From Bdellovibrionota bacterium (GTDB lineage Bacteria > Bdellovibrionota_C > UBA2361 > JBGSMV01): DNA of 14,574 nt. How positions within the stretch are numbered: the stretch's first letter is position 1; each line of letters starts with the position of its first letter. Under the pieces are notes generated by a model that saw only the letters and a list, made by a program, of their open reading frames with translations, did not search any database and had not been told where the DNA came from. Positions 360 through 14,144 of this stretch are shown here, piece by piece. Where the stretch lies: contig JBIKWF010000110.1 in NCBI GenBank assembly GCA_044356455.1, forward strand, positions 1 to 14,574. Reading direction: 5' to 3'. A program made the translations under genes and the position numbers.

Positions 360-998
360 TCATGGGGCACTTTCCGAGAATCCAAGCGCTCGGTAGAGCT
401 GGCGGGCGGCATAATTGTCCTCTCTCACGCAAAGGACAATCTCAGCTTTACCGAGCCGCGAAGCCAGCGCCCCGAACTCAACCAAAAGTGCACGCGCTAA
501 GCCCCTTCCACGATAATTGGGATCTGTGAATATATCAGTAACAAAGAGGGAATCTGTGGCCTTTCCCCAGGGCGGACCTGTCACTGCGAACAGTGCTGAA
601 ATAATGCTTCCCCCTTCATTTTCCACAACAAAACAGCCACCAGGAAGAAATGCACCAAAGTCTCCTCGATACAGAGCTCGGAATTCATCTCGACTGCCTG
701 CGTCCGACTGATAGGTTCTATCTGCCTGAAAGCAGCGGAAGTGAAGCGCCGCGACCTGTGCAAAATCCTCTGGTTCAAAGAGCCTTTGGCGAAACCCAGC
801 TGGGATGATCGGCTGAGTCGGGGGCAAGAGCGAAGAGGTCTGTGCAACAAGACATAAACGCTTCCCTGGCGAGACTACCGAACTTAGGCCGTCACACAAA
901 TCTGGGAATCGATACGGCTTTCCACAAATGGTGAGGTCAACAAATTCGAAGGAAGTGTTGGTACTCCTGCCGAAACGCGCATCGTTGCCAAGTGCCAT
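360..998 (-). CDS. GNAT-family N-acetyltransferase
   Basis: 212-aa ORF with acetyl-CoA binding motif A (IFTDPNYRGRGLARALL) and C-terminal VREDNYAARQLYRALGF. Confidence 0.9.
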   Translation of the reverse strand: MALGNDARFGRSTNTSFEFVDLTICGKPYRFPDLCDGLSSVVSPGKRLCLVAQTSSLLPPTQPIIPAGFRQRLFEPEDFAQVAALHFRCFQADRTYQSDAGSRDEFRALYRGDFGAFLPGGCFVVENEGGSIISALFAVTGPPWGKATDSLFVTDIFTDPNYRGRGLARALLVEFGALASRLGKAEIVLCVREDNYAARQLYRALGFSESAP

Positions 999-1336: not shown

Positions 1337-2824
1337 ATGAGTATTCGAGACGGAAAATTTCTAGAGCAAGACCAATTTGTTAAGTTCCTGGCGCTCTGCT
1401 GCGAAGAGGCGCAGAGAGGTGGAGCTACCTTCAGCGACATGAGATTCTCTCGAGTTGCAGAGGAGCGATTTATCTGCCGCGATCGCGAGGTGGAGGAGTC
1501 CGAGATAGGAACTACCCACAGATTTGGCATTCGGGTTTGGATTGATGGTGCCATGGGGTTTGCGTCGGGCGCAGCCTTTGATGAGGAGACCGTCCGAGCT
1601 ATGGCTCGAGAAGCCTGCCTAATAGCCCATGCGCATGCCAAACGAACACGCCTTATTGCTGCCCCACCTGTCCATCCACGGGTCTTACCTTCTTGGGTAA
1701 GCCCTCACGTTATAGACCCATTTTCAGTTAATGTGAGAGAAAAAGAAGAATGGCTTCTTGGCGCGAATGGAACGGCTCTTTCCGCAGGAGCGACGCACTG
1801 TGAATCGCATCTTTGGTTTGTAAAGGATTTTCGACTTTACGGTTCCTCGGACGGAGTTGTTTTATCCCAAGAGGCAATTCGTTCATGGGCGGAGGTCAGA
1901 CCTTCTATCGTTGACTCCCAGGCGGGTAAGCATGCTGAACGCAAGACCCTCATCCCCCCCCAAGCCTGCGGCTACGAACTCCTCGAGAAATTCCCTCCTA
2001 CAGAAATAGAGATTGCGACGGAGCATGCCAAAATGAAACTCAAGTCGCCGACGGTTAGGTCTGGGACCAAGGATCTTGTTATTGCGCCGTCCAATCTGTG
2101 GCTTACCATCCATGAGACCGTGGGCCATTCTACTGAGTCTGATCGGATATTAGGATTCGAAGCCAACTTTGCGGGGACGACATTTGTCAAACCAGTGGAC
2201 ATTGGTCATTTGGTATTTGGGTCTCCCCTAGTCAACTTTACTGCCGATCGTACTTCAACAAACGGCCTCGCAAGCTCCGGATTCGATGACGAAGGGATTC
2301 CGACCTCGAAGTTCCAGCTTGTGAAGGATGGTATTCTTGTCGACGTCCCAACCTCCAGTGATACGGCTCGGATCCTCGGTTTCGAACGTTCGAATGGCTG
2401 TGCGTTCTGCGAAACCGCCGGCAGAATCCCCATTCTTAGAATGCCCAATATATCGCTTGAGCCTGGCGCTCGCGCATGCTCGCTCGAGAACCTGATTTCT
2501 GCCGTAGAGGATGGGCTCCTCGTCATTGGCGATGATTGTTGGAGTATCGATCAGAAACGCCATCAATTTCAGTTTTCTGCGCAAGAGCTATGGGAAATAA
2601 GGAGGGGGCGAATTACTAACCTCGTTAAAGATGGCGCTTATCACGGGAGGACTCGCGAGTTCTGGTCCTCTCTCACTGCGCTTGGGGACGCAAGTACAGT
2701 CGGTTCTGGGGGCACTTTCTTCTGCGGCAAGGGCGAGCCGCTTCAGGCTTCCCCGGTAAGTCATGGTGCCCCCGCCGCGCTTTTTCGCAATGTGGAGGTT
2801 TCTCAGCTGGGAACTGCGCGATGA
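1337..2824 (+). CDS. tldD: TldD-family metalloprotease, catalytic subunit
   Basis: 495 aa with HExxxH motif (TIHETVGHSTESDRILG, nt 2111-2128), FDDEG, RMPN and the C-terminal CGKGEP...VSHG motif typical of TldD. Confidence 0.93.
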   Translation: MSIRDGKFLEQDQFVKFLALCCEEAQRGGATFSDMRFSRVAEERFICRDREVEESEIGTTHRFGIRVWIDGAMGFASGAAFDEETVRAMAREACLIAHAHAKRTRLIAAPPVHPRVLPSWVSPHVIDPFSVNVREKEEWLLGANGTALSAGATHCESHLWFVKDFRLYGSSDGVVLSQEAIRSWAEVRPSIVDSQAGKHAERKTLIPPQACGYELLEKFPPTEIEIATEHAKMKLKSPTVRSGTKDLVIAPSNLWLTIHETVGHSTESDRILGFEANFAGTTFVKPVDIGHLVFGSPLVNFTADRTSTNGLASSGFDDEGIPTSKFQLVKDGILVDVPTSSDTARILGFERSNGCAFCETAGRIPILRMPNISLEPGARACSLENLISAVEDGLLVIGDDCWSIDQKRHQFQFSAQELWEIRRGRITNLVKDGAYHGRTREFWSSLTALGDASTVGSGGTFFCGKGEPLQASPVSHGAPAALFRNVEVSQLGTAR

Positions 2825-4143
2825 CGATCACTTCCCCCACCGCATTGCAAGCCTTAGTTGAAGCTGGAGTCGCCTACGTCCGAGACAGAGACCTGTCTGT
2901 AATCGCCTCGACAACTACGCGTCGGCACATTCGGTTTTCTGAAGAGAACCTCCTTCTTGGGAGTTTAGAAACAGGCTCTTGTCTTCAAGTCAACTCCAGC
3001 AGTCAAGGGAGAACTCATCGAATAGAACTGACTTCCCTCGACCTACTGGCACTCCGCACCGCAATCGATTCGGTGGAATCCAACGCCCCAGCCATTTTTT
3101 CTAATACTCAAGCTTCCCCGCCTGAACTGTATACTTGCCATGCAGTATCGGAAGCGAAACAGCCGGCTTCGCACTCTCGATATCTTGATCTGCTTTCCGA
3201 AAGCGTTGAAAGGCTTGTCGCGGCCGGATTCTCGATATCAGGGCACCTGTGCGATTCAATAGAGACGGAGGCGATCGGAAGCCCGCAGCATGGAGTTGGC
3301 TGCTTTTCCAATCAAGAAGTTACGTTCTCTTGCACTCTCCAATCGCGTGAATCAGGTAGAACGAGCAAATGCCGATTAGCCGCCAGCTCGATCGACGAGC
3401 TCGATATCGCCCCAGCCCTAGCTGCTGCGGCCTTTCGCTGCAAGCTCGGCCCAACCTTGGCTCAAGTCCCATCCGAGGATCTGCCCATCATATTAGAGTC
3501 TGGGGCGGTAGCGGATCTGATGAATGTTATGTTCTGGAACTTCAATTTGCGCTCAGCCCAAGAGGGACGAAGCGGCCTTTCTCTCAGGGAAGGGGGGACG
3601 TTGATCGGAAGCAGAATTACATCTCCTGCCGTTCATTTATTCTCTGATCCGAACGTTTCACACCTGCGATGTAAGCCTTGGGATCCGCAAGGCTTACCCT
3701 TAACCCGAACGGTATGGATCTCAGAGGGTGTTCTTCGAGCTCTCTGCTGTGATCGCATGTGGGCCCGCAAGCAATCGCTCCCCGCAATTGGTGAACCGCG
3801 AAACCTCCTCCTCAAGGGAACAAACAAGCCTTTAGAAGACTTAATTGGAGGCGTGAAACATGGGCTTCTCATTACGAACCTGTGGTACCTGAGGCTTATC
3901 CAATCCGAATCTATGCTATTTACCGGCGTAACACGCGACGGAGTGTTTCTCATTCAAGATGGAAAGGCAGTCCAGCCGGTAAGAGATTTTCGCTTCAACA
4001 TTTCCGCACTTCAGATTCTCTCAAACATTACTGACCTTTCCTGCTCAGCTCGAACCTTCTGCTATGAACCTGGTCTTGAGCGAGTCGACGTTCCCGCCTT
4101 GCTCACGAAAGGGCTTAAGATAGTAGGCGAAGTTTCAACTTAA
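2821..4143 (+). CDS. tldE: TldE/PmbA-family non-catalytic partner subunit
   Basis: 440 aa with ATGA overlap with tldD. It has PWDPQG, GLLITNLWYLR, TGVTRDGVFLIQDG and PVRDFRFN motifs and lacks the HExxxH motif. Confidence 0.88.
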   Translation: MTITSPTALQALVEAGVAYVRDRDLSVIASTTTRRHIRFSEENLLLGSLETGSCLQVNSSSQGRTHRIELTSLDLLALRTAIDSVESNAPAIFSNTQASPPELYTCHAVSEAKQPASHSRYLDLLSESVERLVAAGFSISGHLCDSIETEAIGSPQHGVGCFSNQEVTFSCTLQSRESGRTSKCRLAASSIDELDIAPALAAAAFRCKLGPTLAQVPSEDLPIILESGAVADLMNVMFWNFNLRSAQEGRSGLSLREGGTLIGSRITSPAVHLFSDPNVSHLRCKPWDPQGLPLTRTVWISEGVLRALCCDRMWARKQSLPAIGEPRNLLLKGTNKPLEDLIGGVKHGLLITNLWYLRLIQSESMLFTGVTRDGVFLIQDGKAVQPVRDFRFNISALQILSNITDLSCSARTFCYEPGLERVDVPALLTKGLKIVGEVST

Positions 4144-4473: not shown

Positions 4474-5388
4474 ATGCAGGAACATCTCACTTTAAACTTT
4501 TGGCAACAAGCGGTCGCGTCGCTCGAGCTTTCAGAAACGCTACTCCCCTCTCCAGAGCGGTTCGATTTTACCGAAGAAGAGATCACTGACTACGTCGAAT
4601 GCCTGCGTTCTGAGGCATACTTTATAACTGGTCGTTCGTTACTACCGCGGGCGATGCGAGTGAAAATGCTAGACGCTATCGACAGTGTGATGGCTAAGCA
4701 GTTAGATCCCATTTGGACTCTGTTGTACGATGAGTTCTGGATTACCGCTGCTCAATTCAGCACTCTCATCGAGAGAATACTCGGACCTGACTATAAATAC
4801 GTTACTGGCAACTACATCTTCGTTATTCCTAATGAAGATAGTGCTAGCGGATGGGGGCCTCACCGGGACGTGATGCATAAAAAGTCATTAGCCGCTGATG
4901 GTCTTCCGGAAGTTATGACGTTCTGGACGGCACTGACAGACGCCACGCCACTCAATAGCTGTTTATATTGCGTACCTGGGTCGAGAGACAAGAACTACCC
5001 TAATAACGTGCAAGAGCGTTCGGTCGAGAATGTTAAAGACATTGTGTGCATGGCTGTGTCAGCAGGGCAGACCATCGGATTGAATCATTCGCTTCTTCAC
5101 TGGGGAAGCCGTAGTAGTAAGCGAGGAGCCGAACGACGGGTTAGTTTCGTTTTTGATGTTCAGCGAGGAGACGTTCCAAAGTATCAAGAAGTAACTTTAG
5201 ATCCTCGGAAGCCGCTTTCATTCGAGGAAAGAGCTGGGTACTTGGGACATGTAGTCCCATGGTTACATAAATACGGGGTTAAGTTTGCATACAAAGATCT
5301 CGCCATAGCGGGGGACTTTGTCCGCGCGTACGGTGAAGCTATAAATTTGCGGACTGACTATCTTACGGACTATCCCGATATACCGTGA
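4474..5388 (+). CDS. Phytanoyl-CoA dioxygenase (PhyH)-family Fe(II)/2-oxoglutarate oxygenase
   Basis: 304 aa with HxD (GWGPHRD), FWTALTDATPLNSCLYCVPGS, distal His (LLHWGS) and a downstream Arg (RRVS). Confidence 0.85.
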   Translation: MQEHLTLNFWQQAVASLELSETLLPSPERFDFTEEEITDYVECLRSEAYFITGRSLLPRAMRVKMLDAIDSVMAKQLDPIWTLLYDEFWITAAQFSTLIERILGPDYKYVTGNYIFVIPNEDSASGWGPHRDVMHKKSLAADGLPEVMTFWTALTDATPLNSCLYCVPGSRDKNYPNNVQERSVENVKDIVCMAVSAGQTIGLNHSLLHWGSRSSKRGAERRVSFVFDVQRGDVPKYQEVTLDPRKPLSFEERAGYLGHVVPWLHKYGVKFAYKDLAIAGDFVRAYGEAINLRTDYLTDYPDIP

Positions 5389-5392
5389 CCTT

Positions 5393-5428
5393 GCCTTCGT
5401 GTGTCATGTGGCCTTCGTGTGTCATGTG
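5393..5428. repeat. Perfect 18-bp tandem duplication
   Basis: GCCTTCGTGTGTCATGTG at 5393-5410 and 5411-5428. Confidence 0.95.
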
Positions 5429-5670
5429 GTTCTGAATGAGCTTTTTGGGTGGTCAGGTAGCGGCGTTACTTCCCCATCAATCATCATCCCGGAGTATTCG
5501 ACACCATCAGGTACGCTAGGCCTATCGTCACCGATGAGGTGCCTGGGCAGATACTATCCCAAGAACACTCCGGCTTCGGTACCTGGGTAGGCGAGCCGTT
5601 TGAAGAGGCAGACCGTACTAGGTTCGTCGCTCGCTATATTGAACGCGGACCGCACGCGTGGGCGTCGTAA
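5429..5670 (+). pseudogene. Possible degraded C-terminus (maturase domain X) of a group II intron reverse transcriptase
   Basis: Broken frames give LNELFGW and RRYF...GVFDTIRY...HAWAS*, resembling the LN...GW..YF...F..I..Y pattern of domain X. The stop at 5668-5670 lies just before domain V, where intron ORFs normally end. Confidence 0.45.
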
Positions 5671-5783
5671 GAACTCCATCGGAGAGCCGGATGCGGGAAA
5701 GTCGCACGTCCGGTTCGATGAGCAGATGCAGGGAATCGGCACGCGCCGCACGGCTCGGAGCTGAGCCCTGACTTCGACTCTAC
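5666..5783 (+). mobile_element. Second group II intron 3' end (domains V-VI) of a 5'-truncated or deleted copy
   Basis: 5666-5798 aligns with 1-134 with 7 substitutions and 1 indel by manual count. Domain V is at 5684-5716 and the copy ends CGACTCTAC at 5783. Confidence 0.9.
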
Positions 5784-6268
5784 CGGGATCCCTTCGGGCG
5801 AACTTTTTTTCTAATAACAGGCTTACGTGAGACTTGCAGATTCTTCTTTGACTGGCACGCTTTGACCAAACCTGCCAATTTTTTGCACTGCAGCTTCGAG
5901 CCCTTCCAGCGCAGAGGCACTCCTTTGCGGCGAGCTCTTCGAGCATTTTTAAAGGGGTCGTTATAGAACCGCTCGGGAAGGAAGCCGCACCACCGAAAAA
6001 TCTGTTCCTCGATCAAACACGCCTGATACTCTCGCAAAATCGACCAGCGATTCTTGAGGTCAAGATTATATCTTTCACGCTCTCTAGGCGTTGCCACTAC
6101 CCAATGGCAAAATTCATGAATGAGTCCCTCAGTGTCTTTTCTCTTAACAAGAATGCAATCAGGCCTCTGCTCTGACTCCTTTCCAAGTCTGACCTTGAGC
6201 CCAGTTGCCCTCTCAACTTCCTTTTTTACCGCCTCAAAGGCCCCGGAAACATCAACTCCCTTGGTCAT
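5780..6268 (-). CDS. Small HExxH-motif protein, loosely EpmC/YfcM-like putative metalloenzyme
   Basis: 162 aa with LIHEFCHWVVATPRER and a downstream Glu (REYQAC). It has a 4-nt overlap with the methyltransferase stop, and its own stop lies within the intron end. Confidence 0.6.
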   Translation of the reverse strand: MTKGVDVSGAFEAVKKEVERATGLKVRLGKESEQRPDCILVKRKDTEGLIHEFCHWVVATPRERERYNLDLKNRWSILREYQACLIEEQIFRWCGFLPERFYNDPFKNARRARRKGVPLRWKGSKLQCKKLAGLVKACQSKKNLQVSRKPVIRKKVRPKGSR

Positions 6269-7203
6269 GAAACCCTCCTGAGCAGAAACCAGAAATTGCC
6301 CCTTGCTTCCCGGTCGACGGATGCCCTCTCAAATCTATCGTCAAACGTTGCCTCTAACTTCCAAGGACACCCATCGCGGAAAAGGGACAAAAGTGTCGCA
6401 ATTGGGAAATATCCTTGACGCTGATATTCTCTCGTCACCTCAACTTGTCGCTCGACATCTTCAATTACTACCTCCTCGATTATTTGACTTGAGAGGTGAT
6501 CAAATGAGTGCAGTAACCAAGTTGCTCGATGCGGTCTCCCTTCCCAGGCAAAATCCCAAGAGCTCCTGTACGGTGTGGCTGGATCAGGCCTTAGATCGAG
6601 ATGGAATAAGTAGGCGCCCCCGGGAATCACAGAGTTTCCAAGACTACCAAGATGGGCGCGAAGCTGATGCATGCTCGTAAGATAGCGAATGGAGTTCATG
6701 CACGCGAATGCATAGGAATAGGAATTCGGGGAACAGAAGTACTCAACTCTTGCGCGAAAAATTCGGCACCCATTTGAGGAAGGCAACTTGGACTGTACCC
6801 AGCGGGTGGAGCTCAGGCTCTCATCTATTCCATCAACACACCATCCACGCTGTAGCACACAGGGGAGAAGAATCCTTCCATTCCCACAGCCGACGTCTAG
6901 CCCTCTACCTTTAAGGAGACTGCCAAACTGCTCTTCAAAAAAGTTCAACTCGGGTTCTGGCGACCAATTGAAAAGCGCCTCCATCAGCTCTGGGTGTTCA
7001 AAGATTTTCCTTGCACCCATGGTGCCATACCCTTGATTCTCAAGCTCTTTCGCATTGTCAAGGTGTAGTGAACCATCCCTAAGAAGGGATATCAAAACCG
7101 TTCTTTCTCCCTGACGCAGCACCAGGCAGGTGGGGGTGTGTGCACTGCGGACACGGGGATCAAGCTCAAAAACTGATCCATCATTTACTAGTATTGATTC
7201 CAC
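6265..7203 (-). CDS. Class I SAM-dependent methyltransferase with N-terminal extension
   Basis: 312 aa with motif I (LDVGCGNGR), VDGIDES, NSIRYL and PGGAYLF. It overlaps the arginase gene end. Confidence 0.9.
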   Translation of the reverse strand: MESILVNDGSVFELDPRVRSAHTPTCLVLRQGERTVLISLLRDGSLHLDNAKELENQGYGTMGARKIFEHPELMEALFNWSPEPELNFFEEQFGSLLKGRGLDVGCGNGRILLPCVLQRGWCVDGIDESLSSTRWVQSKLPSSNGCRIFRARVEYFCSPNSYSYAFACMNSIRYLTSMHQLRAHLGSLGNSVIPGGAYLFHLDLRPDPATPYRSSWDFAWEGRPHRATWLLHSFDHLSSQIIEEVVIEDVERQVEVTREYQRQGYFPIATLLSLFRDGCPWKLEATFDDRFERASVDREARGNFWFLLRRVS

Positions 7204-7903
7204 TGCCTACCATTCCTTTGCTCAACACACGCAACACTGAGCCTACAAACTGAAACTCCCTACTTTCCTCCGCCGCTCCATGCCATTCCACAATATCAGC
7301 TCCAACAATGGGGCCCCGAATTCTAGCAAGAGACTCAGTAAATGACTCGAAGGAGGTCGCGCAATCAGGAGCGCACTCGGCAGGATACGAAACCGAGGGA
7401 ACAGTAGAAGGAGGAAAATAGTCGAGATCTAGGGAAATAAAGGTAGGTCCAATGATATCCTTCTCAAGTAAACAAGGTCGAGGCTCCTTGACATCATGAC
7501 GTACTCCCAAAGAGATAACCCGAGATTGAAGAATACGGGAACAATGAAAAAAAACAGTGTAGTTCGTCAGCTGCAAATCTTCATAGCAATCATGGTGGGC
7601 ATCAAAATGAAGAATGGTAAGGGGGCCATAATGAGAGGTGAGCGCCTCGACTGAAAAGAATGTAAGGCTATGATCTCCTCCCAGACACAATGGAACGTCT
7701 CCCCTTGACGCAACTTCCGCCATGTCCCAGCCAAGCAACTTTGGCAAAAAGGGACCCATTTCTCGGGGATATTCTATGCAAGATTCTTTTTCACAGAGTT
7801 TCCGCCAGGCGCGAGCCGAACCAGCGCTCCCCGGTTTTTTTGAGTAGCCATCAAATGGAGAGATAATAGGAACGACTTTTTTCATTTCAAAATCTTTCTT
7901 CAC
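7181..7903 (-). CDS. Arginase/agmatinase (ureohydrolase)-family protein
   Basis: 240 aa with all hallmark metal-binding motifs: GGDHS, FDAHHD, SLDLD and GADIVE. Confidence 0.9.
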   Translation of the reverse strand: MKKDFEMKKVVPIISPFDGYSKKPGSAGSARAWRKLCEKESCIEYPREMGPFLPKLLGWDMAEVASRGDVPLCLGGDHSLTFFSVEALTSHYGPLTILHFDAHHDCYEDLQLTNYTVFFHCSRILQSRVISLGVRHDVKEPRPCLLEKDIIGPTFISLDLDYFPPSTVPSVSYPAECAPDCATSFESFTESLARIRGPIVGADIVEWHGAAEESREFQFVGSVLRVLSKGMVGSGINTSK

Positions 7904-7912
7904 TGTCGTTCT

Positions 7913-8563
7913 TTAAGAGTGCATTTCGACTATTTTACGTCGAAAGAGCTCCTCCAGGAATGTAGCTCGGTGTTCTGTGTTTATCCCGGCCGGTAAGAGT
8001 GCACTCACTCGAAGGGCGCCTGCCCGTGCGAGCCTCCCCAACGCTCTCTGGGCCACTTGGTTTGAAATGAATAGGGAGGAACCGCAACATACGCCTAACG
8101 TCCCGTCAATCACCCCTACGGCGCACAATGGAGACAGCACCAACAAGGGGTCATCATCAAGGTTTAAGACCGAAAGGACCTTAATCTGAAAAATGAGATC
8201 TGAATTGGGCGGCACCTCCTCAGGGACCCCACGTGATCCATACCCGAGCTCAGATGGCACACGAACAAGCGCAAAGTCTCCTTGCCTCAGTAAAGTCAGG
8301 GCTTTGCTAAATCCTAGAATGAGAGATCTGGAAGGCACGGAAGTGACCATCTTCACCGGCCGAGCGCCCGTCCCATCGAGTGAAGCGCCCCCCATTAACC
8401 ACGCGCGATAAGAAAGCTCAACAATTGCATTTTCTCCCACCCTTTTCCCATGTCCATGCGCCCGCCACGCGCACACGAGACCACTCGGATCCGTCACCAC
8501 ATGCCGCCCCTCTGAGAGCATCTGAGCAAACAAGGCAGGGCCAACTACCCATCCATACTTCAT
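7913..8563 (-). CDS. FKBP-type peptidyl-prolyl cis-trans isomerase with extra C-terminal domain
   Basis: Residues ~22-132 match the FKBP pattern (VELSY...LDGT...LILGF...VPSELGYGSRG...VPPNSDLIFQIKVL). An additional ~80 aa follows at the C-terminus, and the start overlaps the upstream gene by 4 nt. Confidence 0.88.
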   Translation of the reverse strand: MKYGWVVGPALFAQMLSEGRHVVTDPSGLVCAWRAHGHGKRVGENAIVELSYRAWLMGGASLDGTGARPVKMVTSVPSRSLILGFSKALTLLRQGDFALVRVPSELGYGSRGVPEEVPPNSDLIFQIKVLSVLNLDDDPLLVLSPLCAVGVIDGTLGVCCGSSLFISNQVAQRALGRLARAGALRVSALLPAGINTEHRATFLEELFRRKIVEMHS

Positions 8564-10824
8564 ATTTGCGGTAGCCTCCGCTCAGATGCAAAGGAGCTGA
8601 TACCAGGCTCAAAGAACTCGCTTCGTGATTTCACTGAGGATCCATCCGAGCGAATCCAAAGAGAAGGAGCGCGATCTTCTATGGGGCTGAGATAGGCTCC
8701 TCGGTAGAGAGTGCCCTTTTCTACAAGATGCAATACGGGCAGGTCGCTTTGCTGAGTCGAGAGAAGCTCTGCATTTCTGTAATAGGAGTCGCTGCCAAAA
8801 ACAAGACAAGCGCCCTCCGCCCCAAGCATCCTCGTTTCCGGAGTAATAGATCTCCAATAAGCGAGTCTGTCTTCTATTTTTCCGGGCATGGCATGACTGC
8901 CTACAATCAGAGGCAAAGCTCTCGATGGAAAAAGACTCTCGGAGCTAAGAGCAGCCTGCGGCTCCGGCGGCTGCCCCCCATCGAGGAGGCCCTCATCAAG
9001 TAAGCCCTCATCAAGTAAGCCCTCATCAAGTAAGCCCTCATCAAGTAAGATTGCCCGACTAAGATTGGCAACTGCCGCAGTGGACACTCGGGGCTTCCTG
9101 AATGGCTCAGCGGAGAATGCGGGCTTATCAAGAGGCATGCGAGAAACCGCGCGACTAAATATTGCAAACGGCAACTCTTGCTCCACCCATCGAGAGGGTG
9201 AGAGGCCCACTACGATTTCCAATTTGGTAAAGGGCTCCCAATTCTTAAATTGCTGCCTGATTATTGCAGCAAGTTCAGAAAAATAGTCGGCTTCCGGGAA
9301 GCGCAGAATTAGGGAAATGGTGCAGGTAAAGGAAGCATTCTTTAACGCATTGCCGAGCGTCTGGACCCACGCAGCGCCGGGTAGGTCCTGGAGAACCGTG
9401 ATCATTGAGTATCCGGTTGAGTCGGAACTACAAGAGCGACGCTCGCTTTGGTAGATCCGTCGCATGTTTCTAATTTCTGGCCACGGAAGAGCAAAGGAAG
9501 CGCGAGCATTAAGACCCCAAGACTCCTTTTGCTTAATATGGCAATCACGCATTTGGGCCAGAAATAGCTCAGAGATGCGGCGTCTCTCAACTCGACGCTT
9601 CTCACGGTTCGTCATGTGCGGAATTTCAATTAAAGAACCCGGGGAGAGGTATTTGGGCCAAGAGCCTCTCTGCACCACGGGCTTGAGTCGAATCCCACTG
9701 TGGGCAGGATCGGTTGTATCGGGAGACCCGAAATAAAGCTGGTTCCAATTGCCAGTGTTGTTTCCATTGAAAAACAGCCCCTTACTTCGAATAAAGTCAA
9801 AGGTGGATAAAATTGAGGGCTCCGAGTCCCCCGCGTTTCCCATCATATGAAGAAATTCGACTTGAATTCCCTCTTTGAAAATAGCATCCACTGTGGCAGA
9901 GAATCCGTCCAGAGTCTGGCCTTTCCCCATGCGCGCCAAGGCTTGGTTATCGGCGGACTCAAGTCCCATCGCAATTTTTGAAACCCCTGCCAACTTCATT
10001 GCGCTGAGCATTTGAGCATCAAGAAGATCTGCGCGTGTTTCACACCAGAAATCCAGGCTGAGACCAAGCTTTGCGATCGCGTCGAAGAGCTCCAAGCAGC
10101 GCTTGCGGTTGACGCTGAATAATGGGTCTGCGATCCAGAAGCTGCGCACGCCTTTACCATAGAGCCAACGCACCTCTTCGATAACGCGAGAGATTGAGTG
10201 GTATCTAACTCGTCTCTGACTCAAGAAAGGTGTTACGCAGAATCTACAGCTAAAGGAACATCCTCGAGAAGTTAACAATAGTGCCCGCTCATGGGGCGAC
10301 ACGGCAATAATTCCCTCAAGGTAGGGCGAAGGATACGAATCGAGATCGTCCGGTAGCGTTGGCCATGGCCGCTCCGCTATGGTCCCAAGCGAGTTTCTAA
10401 AGGCGATTCCTGGAACTGTGTCGACCGGGTCACCCCTATCAAGCCGCAGGAGCAACTCGCTGGTGACGATTTCCCCCTCCCCACGACAAAGATAATCAAT
10501 GTTAGGCATCTCAAGCAGCGCGCTTCCCGGCATTGCGGGCACCTGCGGTCCTCCCAATAATATGTGAGAGCCGAGCAGCTCCTTTGCAAGTTTCGCGAGG
10601 CAGAGGACCTGGTGCATCGACTCATTGTAAGCGGCAATTCCCAAAAGAAGCGGCCGCTCTCGATTAAGAATTTCGAGAAATCCTGAAAGTGAGGGCCTGT
10701 CACGTGCAAAATCAATGATGGTTGCTCTCGCTCCTAGTTTGGCAACGTAGGCGGCGATATACCCAAGCGCGATATCGTTTCGGGTATGGGAGCAGGGATT
10801 TACAAGAAGGACAGATGACTTCAT
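8560..10824 (-). CDS. Cobalamin-dependent (class B) radical SAM enzyme, probable C-methyltransferase, with long C-terminal extension
   Basis: 754 aa with an N-terminal B12-binding domain (LLVNP...LGYIAAY...LLGGPQ...RGEGE), TSRGCSFSCRFC (CxxxCxxC), ETRAD and GLESAD. Confidence 0.92.
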   Translation of the reverse strand: MKSSVLLVNPCSHTRNDIALGYIAAYVAKLGARATIIDFARDRPSLSGFLEILNRERPLLLGIAAYNESMHQVLCLAKLAKELLGSHILLGGPQVPAMPGSALLEMPNIDYLCRGEGEIVTSELLLRLDRGDPVDTVPGIAFRNSLGTIAERPWPTLPDDLDSYPSPYLEGIIAVSPHERALLLTSRGCSFSCRFCVTPFLSQRRVRYHSISRVIEEVRWLYGKGVRSFWIADPLFSVNRKRCLELFDAIAKLGLSLDFWCETRADLLDAQMLSAMKLAGVSKIAMGLESADNQALARMGKGQTLDGFSATVDAIFKEGIQVEFLHMMGNAGDSEPSILSTFDFIRSKGLFFNGNNTGNWNQLYFGSPDTTDPAHSGIRLKPVVQRGSWPKYLSPGSLIEIPHMTNREKRRVERRRISELFLAQMRDCHIKQKESWGLNARASFALPWPEIRNMRRIYQSERRSCSSDSTGYSMITVLQDLPGAAWVQTLGNALKNASFTCTISLILRFPEADYFSELAAIIRQQFKNWEPFTKLEIVVGLSPSRWVEQELPFAIFSRAVSRMPLDKPAFSAEPFRKPRVSTAAVANLSRAILLDEGLLDEGLLDEGLLDEGLLDGGQPPEPQAALSSESLFPSRALPLIVGSHAMPGKIEDRLAYWRSITPETRMLGAEGACLVFGSDSYYRNAELLSTQQSDLPVLHLVEKGTLYRGAYLSPIEDRAPSLWIRSDGSSVKSRSEFFEPGISSFASERRLPQI
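8974..9048. repeat. In-frame 15-bp tandem repeat (VNTR) encoding (LLDEG)4-LLDGG
   Basis: GCCCTCATCAAGTAA occurs 4 times exactly at 8989-9048, with one degenerate unit at 8974-8988. Confidence 0.95.
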
Positions 10825-10862: not shown

Positions 10863-11042
10863 TTTCTCACTGAGAAAGACCGAGTCAGCTAAGTACTTAG
10901 CGAATGAAGGTTCGATTTTTAGTAATTACCTGAAAGCAAACGATGTTTGAGTCGGTTGCCCTGAGATTGAAGATATATGTTGACGCAAGACGCAGCCTTT
11001 CATACCCTTGTTTCTGTATATTTTTTTGGAGGGATACCTACC

Positions 11043-11222
11043 ATGACCCCGCGTTTACCTGGATCTGATATTGATTCTATTTCCGAGAGTGACTCTGCTG
11101 AGGAACTCGCATCGAATGACGTCCGAGAGGAAGAAGCTCCACGTATTATTGAGCTTAAGAAATCCGTAGAAGGGATGAAGGTTTCGGAAGAATCCCGCTG
11201 TCGTCCGCATCATTTGCTGTAG
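11043..11222 (+). CDS. Small acidic peptide (59 aa), candidate RiPP precursor
   Basis: GGAGGG Shine-Dalgarno at 11028-11033, 9 nt before ATG 11043. Sequence MTPRLPGSDIDSISESDSAEELASNDVREEEAPRIIELKKSVEGMKVSEESRCRPHHLL. It lies upstream of the rSAM/SPASM gene on the same strand. Confidence 0.7.
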   Translation: MTPRLPGSDIDSISESDSAEELASNDVREEEAPRIIELKKSVEGMKVSEESRCRPHHLL

Positions 11223-11380
11223 TTGAGTGTATTTGCTGCTTGTGAGCGAGTTCGATTTTTAATTTCTTCGTGATTGTTTTTTTGTTTACCGTTATCGAAC
11301 TAGAACCTCATTTGCGGGCGCTGCATCAATGATAGTGGCCTAGTTCAGCTGTACAAAATTGAGATTCAGGAGACTTTATT

Positions 11381-11764
11381 ATGAGAAAAACGCCTAAGTA
11401 TCTGAAAAGATTCTCTGCGATTGCTGCTGCGATGTCAGCTTCGCTTGTTGCGAGTTCTGCGATGGCAGCACCGACAGTGGCTGCTGAGGGCGCTGTGGTG
11501 ATGTCGATTCAGCAGGTAATGGAGGCGATAAACAATGGCTGTCAAGTTTCATTAGTTGGGCCTGCAACCGCGTCAGGGGAGCTTCTTGCTCCATATAATC
11601 GCGAAAAAGGTGCAGCTGACGCGAAAGTTGCCGCCAAGTGGGATGGAGCCGCTGCCCCCGCGGGTCCAAGTTCTGGCCCATCGCCATTCTATCTTGCTAA
11701 AGTATCGAACCAGAGTGGAGGACCGGCCGCATCGATTGCCGTTGCCGACTGCGATAGGGCTTAG
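11381..11764 (+). CDS. Small Ala/Gly-rich secreted protein of unknown function
   Basis: AGGAG Shine-Dalgarno at 11368-11372. Basic N-terminus, hydrophobic stretch and AMA/A signal peptidase I-type site after residue 29. The mature part has two Cys. Confidence 0.8.
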   Translation: MRKTPKYLKRFSAIAAAMSASLVASSAMAAPTVAAEGAVVMSIQQVMEAINNGCQVSLVGPATASGELLAPYNREKGAADAKVAAKWDGAAAPAGPSSGPSPFYLAKVSNQSGGPAASIAVADCDRA

Positions 11765-11791
11765 ATACTGACGCTGATCTAATTGTCTAAG

Positions 11792-11834
11792 GTGCAGGGA
11801 TGCAATGAGTAATTGCTTCCCTGCACTCAGTTTT
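11792..11834 (+). terminator. Stem-loop after the secreted-protein gene (intrinsic terminator or mRNA-stabilising hairpin)
   Basis: GTGCAGGGA-T-GCAAT / ATTGC-T-TCCCTGCAC stem (11792-11826) followed by TCAGTTTT. Confidence 0.6.
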
Positions 11835-11882
11835 CCTTACGCCTCCTCTGACATCAACATTGACTCCCGATGAGGAGAGCAC

Positions 11883-13256
11883 GTGACTTTGAGTGAAGCC
11901 ATCCCGGCAGATACTAACGCGTACCGCGTAGTCTGGAATTCGAGGCTAGGAGAGGTGGTCATCCTCGCTGCATCGCCCTTTGGCTCGGACGGAATTCTCA
12001 ACAACTCGGCGGGCAAAATACTAGATCGGCTCTCAACCGAGCCTGAAAATTGCGCTCAAATTATCAAGCAATTTCCGGAATTTTTCTCGACGCTTCAGAC
12101 TCATCATCTCATTGGGCCTTTGGGCGATATGAGAGCGTCGTTTCGCGCGTTCCGTGGGAAAGAGCAACTCAAATCGATACAAATAGAGCTGACAAGAGTT
12201 TGCAATCTTCGTTGCTCTTATTGTTATTCTGAGAGTGGCCCCTGGCAGAAAGGATCCGGCTTGCCCCTCGAACAGGTGTATAGAGTCCTCAAGGAGGCAG
12301 AGGAGCTGGGTTGCATTACCGTTGATTTTACGGGTGGGGAGCCCCTTGCATATCGCTGGTGGAAAGAGGTTCTTACAGAGGCACGCCGCCTCGGCTTGGT
12401 GACTACGCTGCACACCAACGGGACACTTCTCACTGAGCCAACAGTAGAGTTTCTCGCAAAACTCCCGCTGCGCCATCTTCAGGTCTCGCTTGATTCTCAC
12501 CTTCCGGAAGTCCACGATCGAATTCGCGGCATGCCCGGAGCTTGGGAAAAGGCTGTTGCCGGCATCAAAATCGCTCAGAGACTTGGGATTTTTGTGCGTG
12601 TTGCAATTGTTGCTCACAAGGAGAACCGAGATCACTTCCGGGAGGCCGTTAGTTTTTTCAACGAATCGTTAGGTGTCTCCACGAAGATGGACCGTATTAT
12701 TAAGACTGGCGGAGAGAAGACTGCCAATTTAGGCATTTCTACCAAGGAGTACTACGAACTAATTGCTCCGCTCACCGCTAAGGGGGCCGTGGATGCTCGA
12801 GTTTGCGAATCTTCAGTTCGAACACACCGAGAGCGTATAGAACCTGCGTGTGGCGTAGCACACAGCTTCCTTTACATCACGGCAGAGGGAGAAATTGCTC
12901 TTTGTCCAACAATGACATCTCGTGACGACCCAAGGTTTGGATCTCCTCGCCTCGCCGATGTTGGAATTCGTGAGGCCTGGGAAAGAAGTCCCTACATCGA
13001 GTCCTATCGGTTCTTAAACTGTCGCAATGTCGACTCCTGTCCTACTGGGGCCGCATGTGGAGGCGGATGTCGCTCTAATGCCTATTTTGAAACAGGAGAG
13101 CTCGATAGCCCCGATCAGTTGCATTGCAATCTTAACAAGAATGGTGAGTTGCAATTTAAGGATTTTCTGGGAGAGTATGCCAAGGCGCAATCTGAATTGG
13201 TATCGATAAAGCCAAGATCCATCAAGCCAAGATCCGTCGCAGCAAGGACGTCTTAA
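11883..13256 (+). CDS. Radical SAM/SPASM-domain peptide maturase
   Basis: 457 aa with GTG start and GAGGAG Shine-Dalgarno. It has CNLRCSYC, FTGGEPL, TNGTLL, QVSLDS and SPASM cysteines (CGVA...GEIALCP...CRNVDSC...CGGGCR...HC), plus a ~90-aa N-terminal extension. Confidence 0.93.
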   Translation: MTLSEAIPADTNAYRVVWNSRLGEVVILAASPFGSDGILNNSAGKILDRLSTEPENCAQIIKQFPEFFSTLQTHHLIGPLGDMRASFRAFRGKEQLKSIQIELTRVCNLRCSYCYSESGPWQKGSGLPLEQVYRVLKEAEELGCITVDFTGGEPLAYRWWKEVLTEARRLGLVTTLHTNGTLLTEPTVEFLAKLPLRHLQVSLDSHLPEVHDRIRGMPGAWEKAVAGIKIAQRLGIFVRVAIVAHKENRDHFREAVSFFNESLGVSTKMDRIIKTGGEKTANLGISTKEYYELIAPLTAKGAVDARVCESSVRTHRERIEPACGVAHSFLYITAEGEIALCPTMTSRDDPRFGSPRLADVGIREAWERSPYIESYRFLNCRNVDSCPTGAACGGGCRSNAYFETGELDSPDQLHCNLNKNGELQFKDFLGEYAKAQSELVSIKPRSIKPRSVAARTS

Positions 13257-13295
13257 GTCCAGGACATTATTCACACTCATTCGCAATATTAGAAC

Positions 13296-14144
13296 TTGGA
13301 TAGACCAATGAGTCTCCCCACAAGATATCGACTTATTAACCCACCACACGCCGGGTTGGAATGGCAAGTTCAGCATCAGTTATCGCCTGTAGAGCGGCGC
13401 GAGCTTTCCGAAAATGGTTTTATTGTTCGGACCGATCTCTTTGATTCGCAAACAATTCTCAAAATGCGCGCCGCGGTAGACGATCTCGCCGCGATGGAAG
13501 CCTCGAGAGGGATCGCCGAGTTCACCCGATGGGGTCAATACATCCCATTCCTTATTGAGAAGCACGAAGTCTTTTTGCAGCTCGTGTATCATAAAAAACT
13601 TATCGGGATTGCTCGTGAAGCGCTTGGGCCTCAAGTTCAATTTGACCTTGTGGATGCTCGCATCACCAAATCAGCCAAAGAAGTTGTCGAGTGGCACATC
13701 CATAACCAGTGCGTAGTAGAACCTGCTCCACTATTCCCCTGTTACCCGCACTCTATTCACGTCTTAGTTTACCTAGATGATATTAGCGAAGACAACGGCG
13801 CACTTTGTGTGATGCCTGGCTCGCACCGCAATCCTTCTAACCCGTGCCCCGTTGGGGACAGGGCGCACGAAGATCTGCCGGGACAGGTTGTGATTTCATG
13901 TCCGGCTGGAACTTCTGTTGTGGTCCATGCCCACCTTTGGCATCGCACTATTTCTCCTCGTCAAAGAGAAATAGACCGTAGGATGCTTATCGTTGGCTTC
14001 CTACCGGCATGTGTAAAGAGTACCACTCATCAGTCTGATGAATTTTATCGCCGAGGGTCTCCCTCCGAAAGATTGACCTCGCAATTGCGGGTGGGTGACG
14101 ACCCCGAGATTAGGGAGCTCCTGGGGGAGTACTTTTGGCCCTAA
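13296..14144 (+). CDS. PhyH-family Fe(II)/2-oxoglutarate oxygenase-like protein (start may be ATG 13308)
   Basis: ENGFIV, VYLDDISEDNGALCVMPGSH, PAGTSVVVHAHLWH and RRMLI match PhyH. The first metal motif reads WHIH rather than WHxD. Confidence 0.85.
   Translation: MDRPMSLPTRYRLINPPHAGLEWQVQHQLSPVERRELSENGFIVRTDLFDSQTILKMRAAVDDLAAMEASRGIAEFTRWGQYIPFLIEKHEVFLQLVYHKKLIGIAREALGPQVQFDLVDARITKSAKEVVEWHIHNQCVVEPAPLFPCYPHSIHVLVYLDDISEDNGALCVMPGSHRNPSNPCPVGDRAHEDLPGQVVISCPAGTSVVVHAHLWHRTISPRQREIDRRMLIVGFLPACVKSTTHQSDEFYRRGSPSERLTSQLRVGDDPEIRELLGEYFWP

Follow-up and report, generated by a model that had tools for sequence, protein, structure and literature searches.

The window analysed here is the whole of one contig of a Bdellovibrionota genome (G000:C103, 14,574 nucleotides). 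It contains a gene module arranged in two divergent arms (Table 1). The plus-strand arm consists of a small peptide gene, an ORF for 127 aa, a radical SAM (rSAM) gene and a PhyH-family dioxygenase gene. The minus-strand arm is headed by a B12-binding rSAM gene, which is followed by genes for an FKBP isomerase, an arginase, a methyltransferase and a 162-aa ORF, with ends that adjoin or overlap.

Table 1. Positions of the precursor gene, its elements and the accompanying genes in the window.
Feature	Position	Strand	Basis or predicted role
Shine-Dalgarno GGAGG	11028-11032	+	sequence; 10 bases upstream of ATG 11043
Precursor peptide, 59 aa	11043..11222	+	ATG 11043, paralogue alignment, synonymous changes, RNA contigs
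Leader motif PRIIEL, residues 33-38	11139..11156	+	identical in the C204 paralogue; likely RRE-binding strand
Core S-R-C-R-P-H-H-L-L	11193..11219	+	conserved dipeptide Arg52-Cys53 at 11196-11201
127-aa ORF	11381..11764	+	signal-peptide-like N-terminus; between precursor and rSAM genes
Radical SAM/SPASM maturase with N-terminal RRE-type domain	11883..13256	+	PF04055 and SPASM; predicted ring-forming enzyme
PhyH-family Fe/2OG dioxygenase, accessory	13296..14144	+	PF05721; candidate hydroxylase of the C-R-P-H tail
B12-binding radical SAM, locus-specific accessory	8560..10824	-	PF02310 and PF04055; candidate C-methylase
FKBP peptidyl-prolyl isomerase, locus-specific accessory	7913..8563	-	PF00254
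Arginase-family hydrolase	7181..7903	-	PF00491; predicted to convert Arg52 to ornithine
Class I SAM methyltransferase	6265..7203	-	predicted ornithine N-methylase; homologue in 15/17 loci

The open frame that contains the peptide gene spans 10977-11222 and gives 81 aa when counted from its first ATG. It was annotated in the 81-aa form in one database and in the 59-aa form in others. We rejected the start at 10977, since a paralogue on another contig of the same genome (C204:24597-24776) aligned from Met 11043 and itself starts at the equivalent Met. This paralogue was 48% identical to the peptide (E = 2e-8, search of the same genome), and it was also the only non-self match in a library of 1.84 billion representatives (E = 5.7e-5). 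We compared the codons of the 13-residue leader block around PRIIEL and of C-R-P-H between the two copies. Eight of the 17 codons differed and all eight changes were synonymous. The C204 peptide is flanked by an rSAM and a PhyH dioxygenase which are 58% and 52% identical, respectively, to those of the window, and we found no counterpart of the 127-aa ORF there. The C204 cluster is followed by genes for a DUF6445 oxygenase-like protein (L108:7951-8622, minus strand) and an APH-family kinase (L108:9082-10140, plus strand).

An earlier note on this DNA had described a putative precursor peptide of 59 aa starting at 11043, with an acidic N-terminus, the PRIIEL motif and a distinct tail holding the only Cys and His residues. 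All of these features were confirmed: D, E and S account for 16 of the first 31 residues, and the tail contains the single Cys and both His. The peptide matched no family of Pfam or NCBIfam, and no promoter or terminator of note was seen around its gene.

The expression of the gene was assessed in public RNA data. Seven lake or freshwater RNA runs contain part of 10900-13300, and the contigs of four of them were compared with the window; the shares of the other three runs were small. In all four metatranscriptomes we observed contigs over the precursor gene with at least 99% identity. These contigs began at 11031, 11035, 11036 and 11043, one of them reached 12002, and in some runs the same contigs covered the 127-aa ORF; they demonstrate presence and cannot show strand, level, true start or a single transcript. 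The four studies come from one year and one habitat and possibly belong to a single campaign. The region 5810-10813 and most of the rSAM gene were without RNA contigs in these four runs, which is no proof of silence; the runs had been picked using 10900-13300. The ORF at 11043..11222 is therefore a real gene with its start at 11043, because this start fits the C204 copy, in which the PRIIEL block and C-R-P-H are kept, and because RNA contigs cover the ORF.

The structure model of the rSAM protein had a pLDDT of 91.5. Residues 14-73 formed three strands followed by three helices (pLDDT 93-97 in this block), which is the layout of an RRE. In the model, the N-terminus thus has RRE topology; no Pfam PqqD match was found. 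The nearest solved folds were those of a CteB-type enzyme (5why), SkfB (6efn) and SuiB (5v1s). The database search gave 86 close relatives, including the C204 copy, with E values of up to 6e-65, after which there was a gap to 2e-31. A quick tree with 112 rows placed 103 of them in one clade (SH-aLRT 97), within which the rSAM of the window was sister to that of C204 (support 99). In view of this gap and this clade we regard the enzymes as a discrete family. Its hosts belong to Actinomycetota, Pseudomonadota, Myxococcota and Acidobacteriota. Eleven Cys residues were invariant (77/77), namely three of the SAM cluster and eight of the SPASM domain. With all eight SPASM Cys kept, an iron site might not be available to the substrate thiol; in the open-site model such a site is free to take this thiol. 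The rSAM P0266 (433 aa, 24 cluster members) bridges the family and generic SPASM enzymes (E = 2e-84) and may lead to KgrC, the maturase of the enteropeptin cluster; it was present in 0/401 genomes sampled around Bacillota loci. Only generic rSAM clusters were found in the ESM Atlas. Among 40 relatives of the host, one weak rSAM match was detected (L100, E = 1.5e-45). It was rejected as a family member, as the tree placed it elsewhere and 4.1 kb of its locus contained no arginase, no methyltransferase and no peptide of the expected type.

We compared gene neighbourhoods between 17 family loci (16 of 18 genome loci and one among the 80 metagenome matches listed) and 81 control rSAM loci (the other 79 metagenome loci, L017 and L018). 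The metagenome scan used a generic pattern, and at least one family locus is contained among the 80 matches listed. In profile searches, an arginase homologue was found in 17/17 family loci and 0/81 control loci, and a methyltransferase homologue in 15/17 family loci. The methyltransferase was missing in L008 and L019, the latter sequence being cut 17 bases before the methyltransferase match. The profiles were built with 11 arginases and 11 methyltransferases from the family loci, and held-out proteins also scored strongly (six loci outside the arginase profile, all E ≤ 7e-54). Moreover, for 8 of the 18 closest arginase matches the longest contig is equal in length to that of an rSAM relative, which suggests that the two lie on the same contigs.

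The metal ligands of the arginase (H78, D101, H103, D105, D159, D161) were invariant. It scored best against agmatinase models, below cut-off, and no PF12640 match was obtained. The methyltransferase has a class I fold which resembles CcbJ, CypM and CgnL. It holds one invariant Cys among 12 aligned homologues, and two members have only two Cys.

The remaining genes of the window were less widespread. Tblastn searches of the 17 other loci gave no match for the dioxygenase at 13296..14144, the FKBP, the B12 rSAM, TldD/TldE, or the 127-aa and 162-aa ORFs. The earlier note had linked Pro and the FKBP to a core step, and this idea was not upheld (0/17 loci). The B12 rSAM gave below-cut-off matches to ApyD, KedN5 and TIGR03975; a perfect 15-base repeat (4.1 copies, 8989-9049) lies in frame in its C-terminal part. 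The 127-aa ORF matched no Pfam or NCBIfam family over cut-off, the ESM Atlas gave no usable match, and no relatives of it were found. The 162-aa ORF (5780-6268, minus strand), last of its run, contains an HExxH motif (HEFCH) and may be a metal-dependent tailoring enzyme; it had no Pfam, NCBIfam or PDB sequence match. The TldD/TldE protease pair (1337-4143, plus strand), of which a second pair lies on C117, could remove a leader and was rejected as part of the core module (0/17 related loci). We also rejected as core members a GNAT acetyltransferase (360-998, minus strand; homologue in L004, 1/17) and a second PhyH (4474-5388, plus strand; homologues in L013 and L019, 2/17), both of which may be accessory genes of the cluster. 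Pfam detected no exporter gene in the window. Two group II intron 3' ends (RF00029) are located at 17-119 and 5682-5778 (plus strand), and the 134-base repeat recurs at the ends of many contigs of the host genome. An 18-base duplication is located at 5393-5429.

A Pfam scan of 72 of the 157 called ORFs of the family loci detected MFS transporters in nine loci, C39-ABC exporters in two, further oxygenases in L001 and L004, and MNIO enzymes in L005 and L007. The MNIO genes (PF05114) are at L005:13100-14080 and L007:13352-14350, and the precursors of these loci have Y-R-C-P cores and long followers. In L012-L015, which form a separate sub-clade, the genes are ordered precursor, methyltransferase, rSAM, arginase; two precursors apiece and an additional methyltransferase are found in L012 and L013.

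Thirteen of the 17 family loci contained small peptides with Arg-Cys, most of which are acidic (15 peptides). The four loci without a peptide (L003, L006, L010, L019) end shortly upstream of the rSAM gene. Together with the own paralogue, these peptides beside homologous maturases bear out the assignment of the ORF as a RiPP precursor. A peptide pattern defined post hoc matched 12/17 family loci and 0/81 control loci (14 matches, 1.4 expected); one match among the 12, in L006, was judged to be chance and the peptides of L005 and L007 were missed. Two matches were dropped as chance, namely L002:4283-4531 and L006:9330-9566, the latter lying on the other strand at a distance of 7.7 kb from the rSAM gene.

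We then counted cores in 17 peptides, the window and C204 included, which gave 26 Cys. The start codons in the related peptides were assigned by visual inspection, and the number 26 is inflated by repeated cores and by related genomes; L002 alone contributes seven cores. In L002, L004 and L013 we did not count in-frame extensions upstream that hold further Cys. Arg directly preceded Cys in 25 of the 26 cores, the exception being the Met-Cys of the C204 paralogue. As background, Arg precedes Cys in 754 of 11897 cases (6.3%) in long frames of the host. Position -2 was occupied by G (15), S (7) or Y (4). Pro was found at +1 in 21 and at +2 in 17 cores, while the window's core is atypical, as R at +1 occurs in 2/26 cores. 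His at +3 was found in 2/26 cores. The tail is thus the core, as the earlier note had suggested, with the Arg-Cys dipeptide as its conserved unit instead of RCRPHHLL itself. Of the Cys and His that had been named as rSAM targets, Cys is supported (25/26 follow Arg) and His as a family-wide partner is not (2/26).

The motif P-x-[IVL]-[IVL]-x-[LIVM] was found ahead of the core in 8/17 peptides, 15-20 residues before the next Cys. The P-x-I-I-x-L element, which the earlier note had likened to lasso and PqqA leaders, is therefore conserved in part of the family; no P-x-I-I/L-x-L-like motif was present in the actinobacterial peptides. The precursor of Bradyrhizobium tunisiense (L002:11787-12377, minus strand) has seven repeated G-R-C-P-P cores, with a leader-like P-G-I-L-S-V after and not before them. 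In the 126-aa precursor L015:6518-6898 (plus strand), the N-terminus resembles a signal peptide and the core, G-R-C-K-P, is C-terminal.

The C204 locus helped to assign the enzymes to residues. Its core has Met in place of Arg before Cys and keeps the Arg after Cys, and no family arginase or methyltransferase was detected in 10.3 kb of this locus by profile search. The arginase was predicted earlier to act on Arg, and its absence next to a Met-Cys core that retains the following Arg points to Arg52, the residue before Cys, as its target. The host genome encodes one family arginase and one family methyltransferase, both in the window, so action on the C204 peptide in trans is possible.

We consider it likely that the product of 11043..11222 is a precursor from which an enteropeptin-type sactipeptide with a single ring is made, in which the sulfur of Cys53 is joined to the alpha-carbon of Arg52 and Arg52 then becomes N-methylornithine. 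The link to enteropeptin was missed in the earlier note. The PRIIEL strand would dock on the RRE of the rSAM, and this enzyme would abstract a hydrogen from the alpha-carbon of Arg52 and join it to the Cys53 sulfur in a six-membered thiomorpholine (-2.016 Da). The arginase would convert the ring-bound Arg52 to ornithine (-42.022) and the class I methyltransferase would N-methylate it (+14.016), with a net shift of -30.022. Locus-specific tailoring by the PhyH dioxygenase (+16, on Arg54, Pro55 or His56) and by the B12 rSAM (+14) is likely too, on weaker grounds. A protease outside the conserved module may release a short product that probably acts as a signal or inhibits growth with a narrow spectrum. 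Points against this reading are the atypical core of the window, the eight invariant SPASM Cys, the methyltransferase, in which the several Cys of an Fe-S enzyme are missing, and the result that Pfam gave no exporter in the window.

Enteropeptins, which are gut antibiotics reported from Enterococcus cecorum and Streptococcus thermophilus (KGR subfamily, kgr cluster), have the core MKGOCPPS, where O is N-methylornithine (Table 2 of PMC12395415). In their pathway, ring formation is followed by a PF00491 arginase and N-methylation (PMC12703449). Table 4 of PMC12445099 gives the enteropeptin D core as LKGRCPPSV with a shift of -30.0218. The shifts of -2, -42 and +14 listed in the earlier note, when computed for ring, ornithine and methyl on Arg52-Cys53, sum to exactly this value (-30.0218). 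The single Cys right after Arg, the G-R-C-P-P of most relatives of the window peptide, and the set of rSAM, PF00491 arginase and methyltransferase are also common to both systems.

It is rather unlikely, in our estimation, that the same Arg-Cys target undergoes other chemistry, i.e. that Cys53 is joined to the beta or gamma carbon of Arg52 or another radical step occurs, and/or that the methyl goes to the released N-terminus or to carbon. Such chemistry would agree with the orthology of the rSAM to KgrC being putative, with solved folds near the rSAM that include enzymes of different chemistry (5why, SuiB), with the full conservation of the eight SPASM Cys, and with fold neighbours of the methyltransferase that include the N-terminal methylase CypM and the C-methylases PsmD/SgMT. 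Against it, G-R-C-P-P, the PF00491 arginase and the methyltransferase recur exactly as in enteropeptin, and the Met-Cys locus without arginase and methyltransferase ties both enzymes to the Arg before Cys. A His-carbon or Cys-His crosslink within C-R-P-H, restricted to the window and C204 sub-clade, appears improbable. The synonymous-only change in C-R-P-H, while the residue before Cys differs, and the sister position of the two rSAMs (support 99) would fit it; however, His occurs in 2/26 cores, both rSAMs nest in a family in which the remaining substrates have no His at this place, and the shared PhyH dioxygenase is another reason to keep the tail. Finally, it is very improbable that the ORF codes for a small protein which is not a substrate, or that it is the remnant of a decayed gene, beside enzymes acting on a small molecule, as the missing family match of the peptide, the agmatinase-like scores of the arginase and the intron remnants around the cluster are opposed by the synonymous-only change in conserved blocks, the peptides in 13/17 family loci, the post-hoc pattern, the RRE-type domain and the RNA cover.

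The proposed enteropeptin-type pathway differs from the known systems in several respects. The window core is E-S-R-C-R-P-H and that of enteropeptins K-G-R-C-P-P, and no relative has Lys before G-R-C. KgrB is described as an Fe-S-containing enzyme, whereas the methyltransferase of the window is of class I, with a Rossmann fold and a single invariant Cys; the two may still be distantly homologous. The family occurs in the four phyla named above, the window adds the B12 rSAM, FKBP and dioxygenase, and some relatives have 2-7 cores per precursor. The pathway would work like that of enteropeptin and is not filed as a KGR member, because the K-G-R motif is absent, the methyltransferase is of class I with one invariant Cys, and orthology of the rSAM to KgrC is putative. 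Threoglucins and rotapeptides (TQQ, TqqB) have a Thr oxygen-Gln ether instead of a thioether, and no arginase. SkfB, the sporulation killing factor sactisynthase (6efn), scored best among PDB sequences against the family profile (E = 4e-34) and was the second fold match; this similarity is of a generic rSAM level, and the SkfB product is macrocyclic with no Arg-Cys core or arginase. The PF12640 peptide arginases (OspR, FlmR, OhkR) likewise convert Arg to ornithine on a RiPP core; the enzyme of the window belongs to PF00491, for which KgrD is the precedent.

No named Streptococcus or Enterococcus protein was present among the named matches of the word-filtered searches for rSAM and arginase relatives, in which most matches carried no name, and no kgr locus was found among plasmids, phages and viral contigs. 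In samples around two Bacillota loci, the marker family was over cut-off in 0/251 and 0/200 genomes. In the accessible literature, such clusters were reported from no genus other than Enterococcus and Streptococcus, and the original enteropeptin description may already map relatives. PMC10288494, a genome-mining study, states that KgrA was left out of training, as single-Cys sactipeptides did not have enough data, and one supplementary spreadsheet of this study gave no match for the accessions of two family members or for the core motifs. Tentatively, and with more doubt than confidence, we propose an undescribed cross-phylum thiomorpholine family, in which a class I methyltransferase without a cluster would take the place of KgrB in making N-methylornithine. 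In the window, the tail of nine residues would in addition be hydroxylated and, in a B12-dependent step, C-methylated, and the Met-Cys version would be a RiPP with its thiomorpholine on an acceptor other than Arg.

In summary, these results supply about 100 related maturases and 17 precursors, some of them multi-core, together with cultured hosts in which the product may be sought (Nonomuraea zeae, Stackebrandtia soli, Nocardiopsis eucommiae and Bradyrhizobium tunisiense). The RNA contigs are evidence for transcription of the precursor gene in lake water. The C204 pair, with Met in place of Arg, provides a natural test of the tolerance of the ring enzyme, and the methyltransferase may represent a second route to N-methylornithine.
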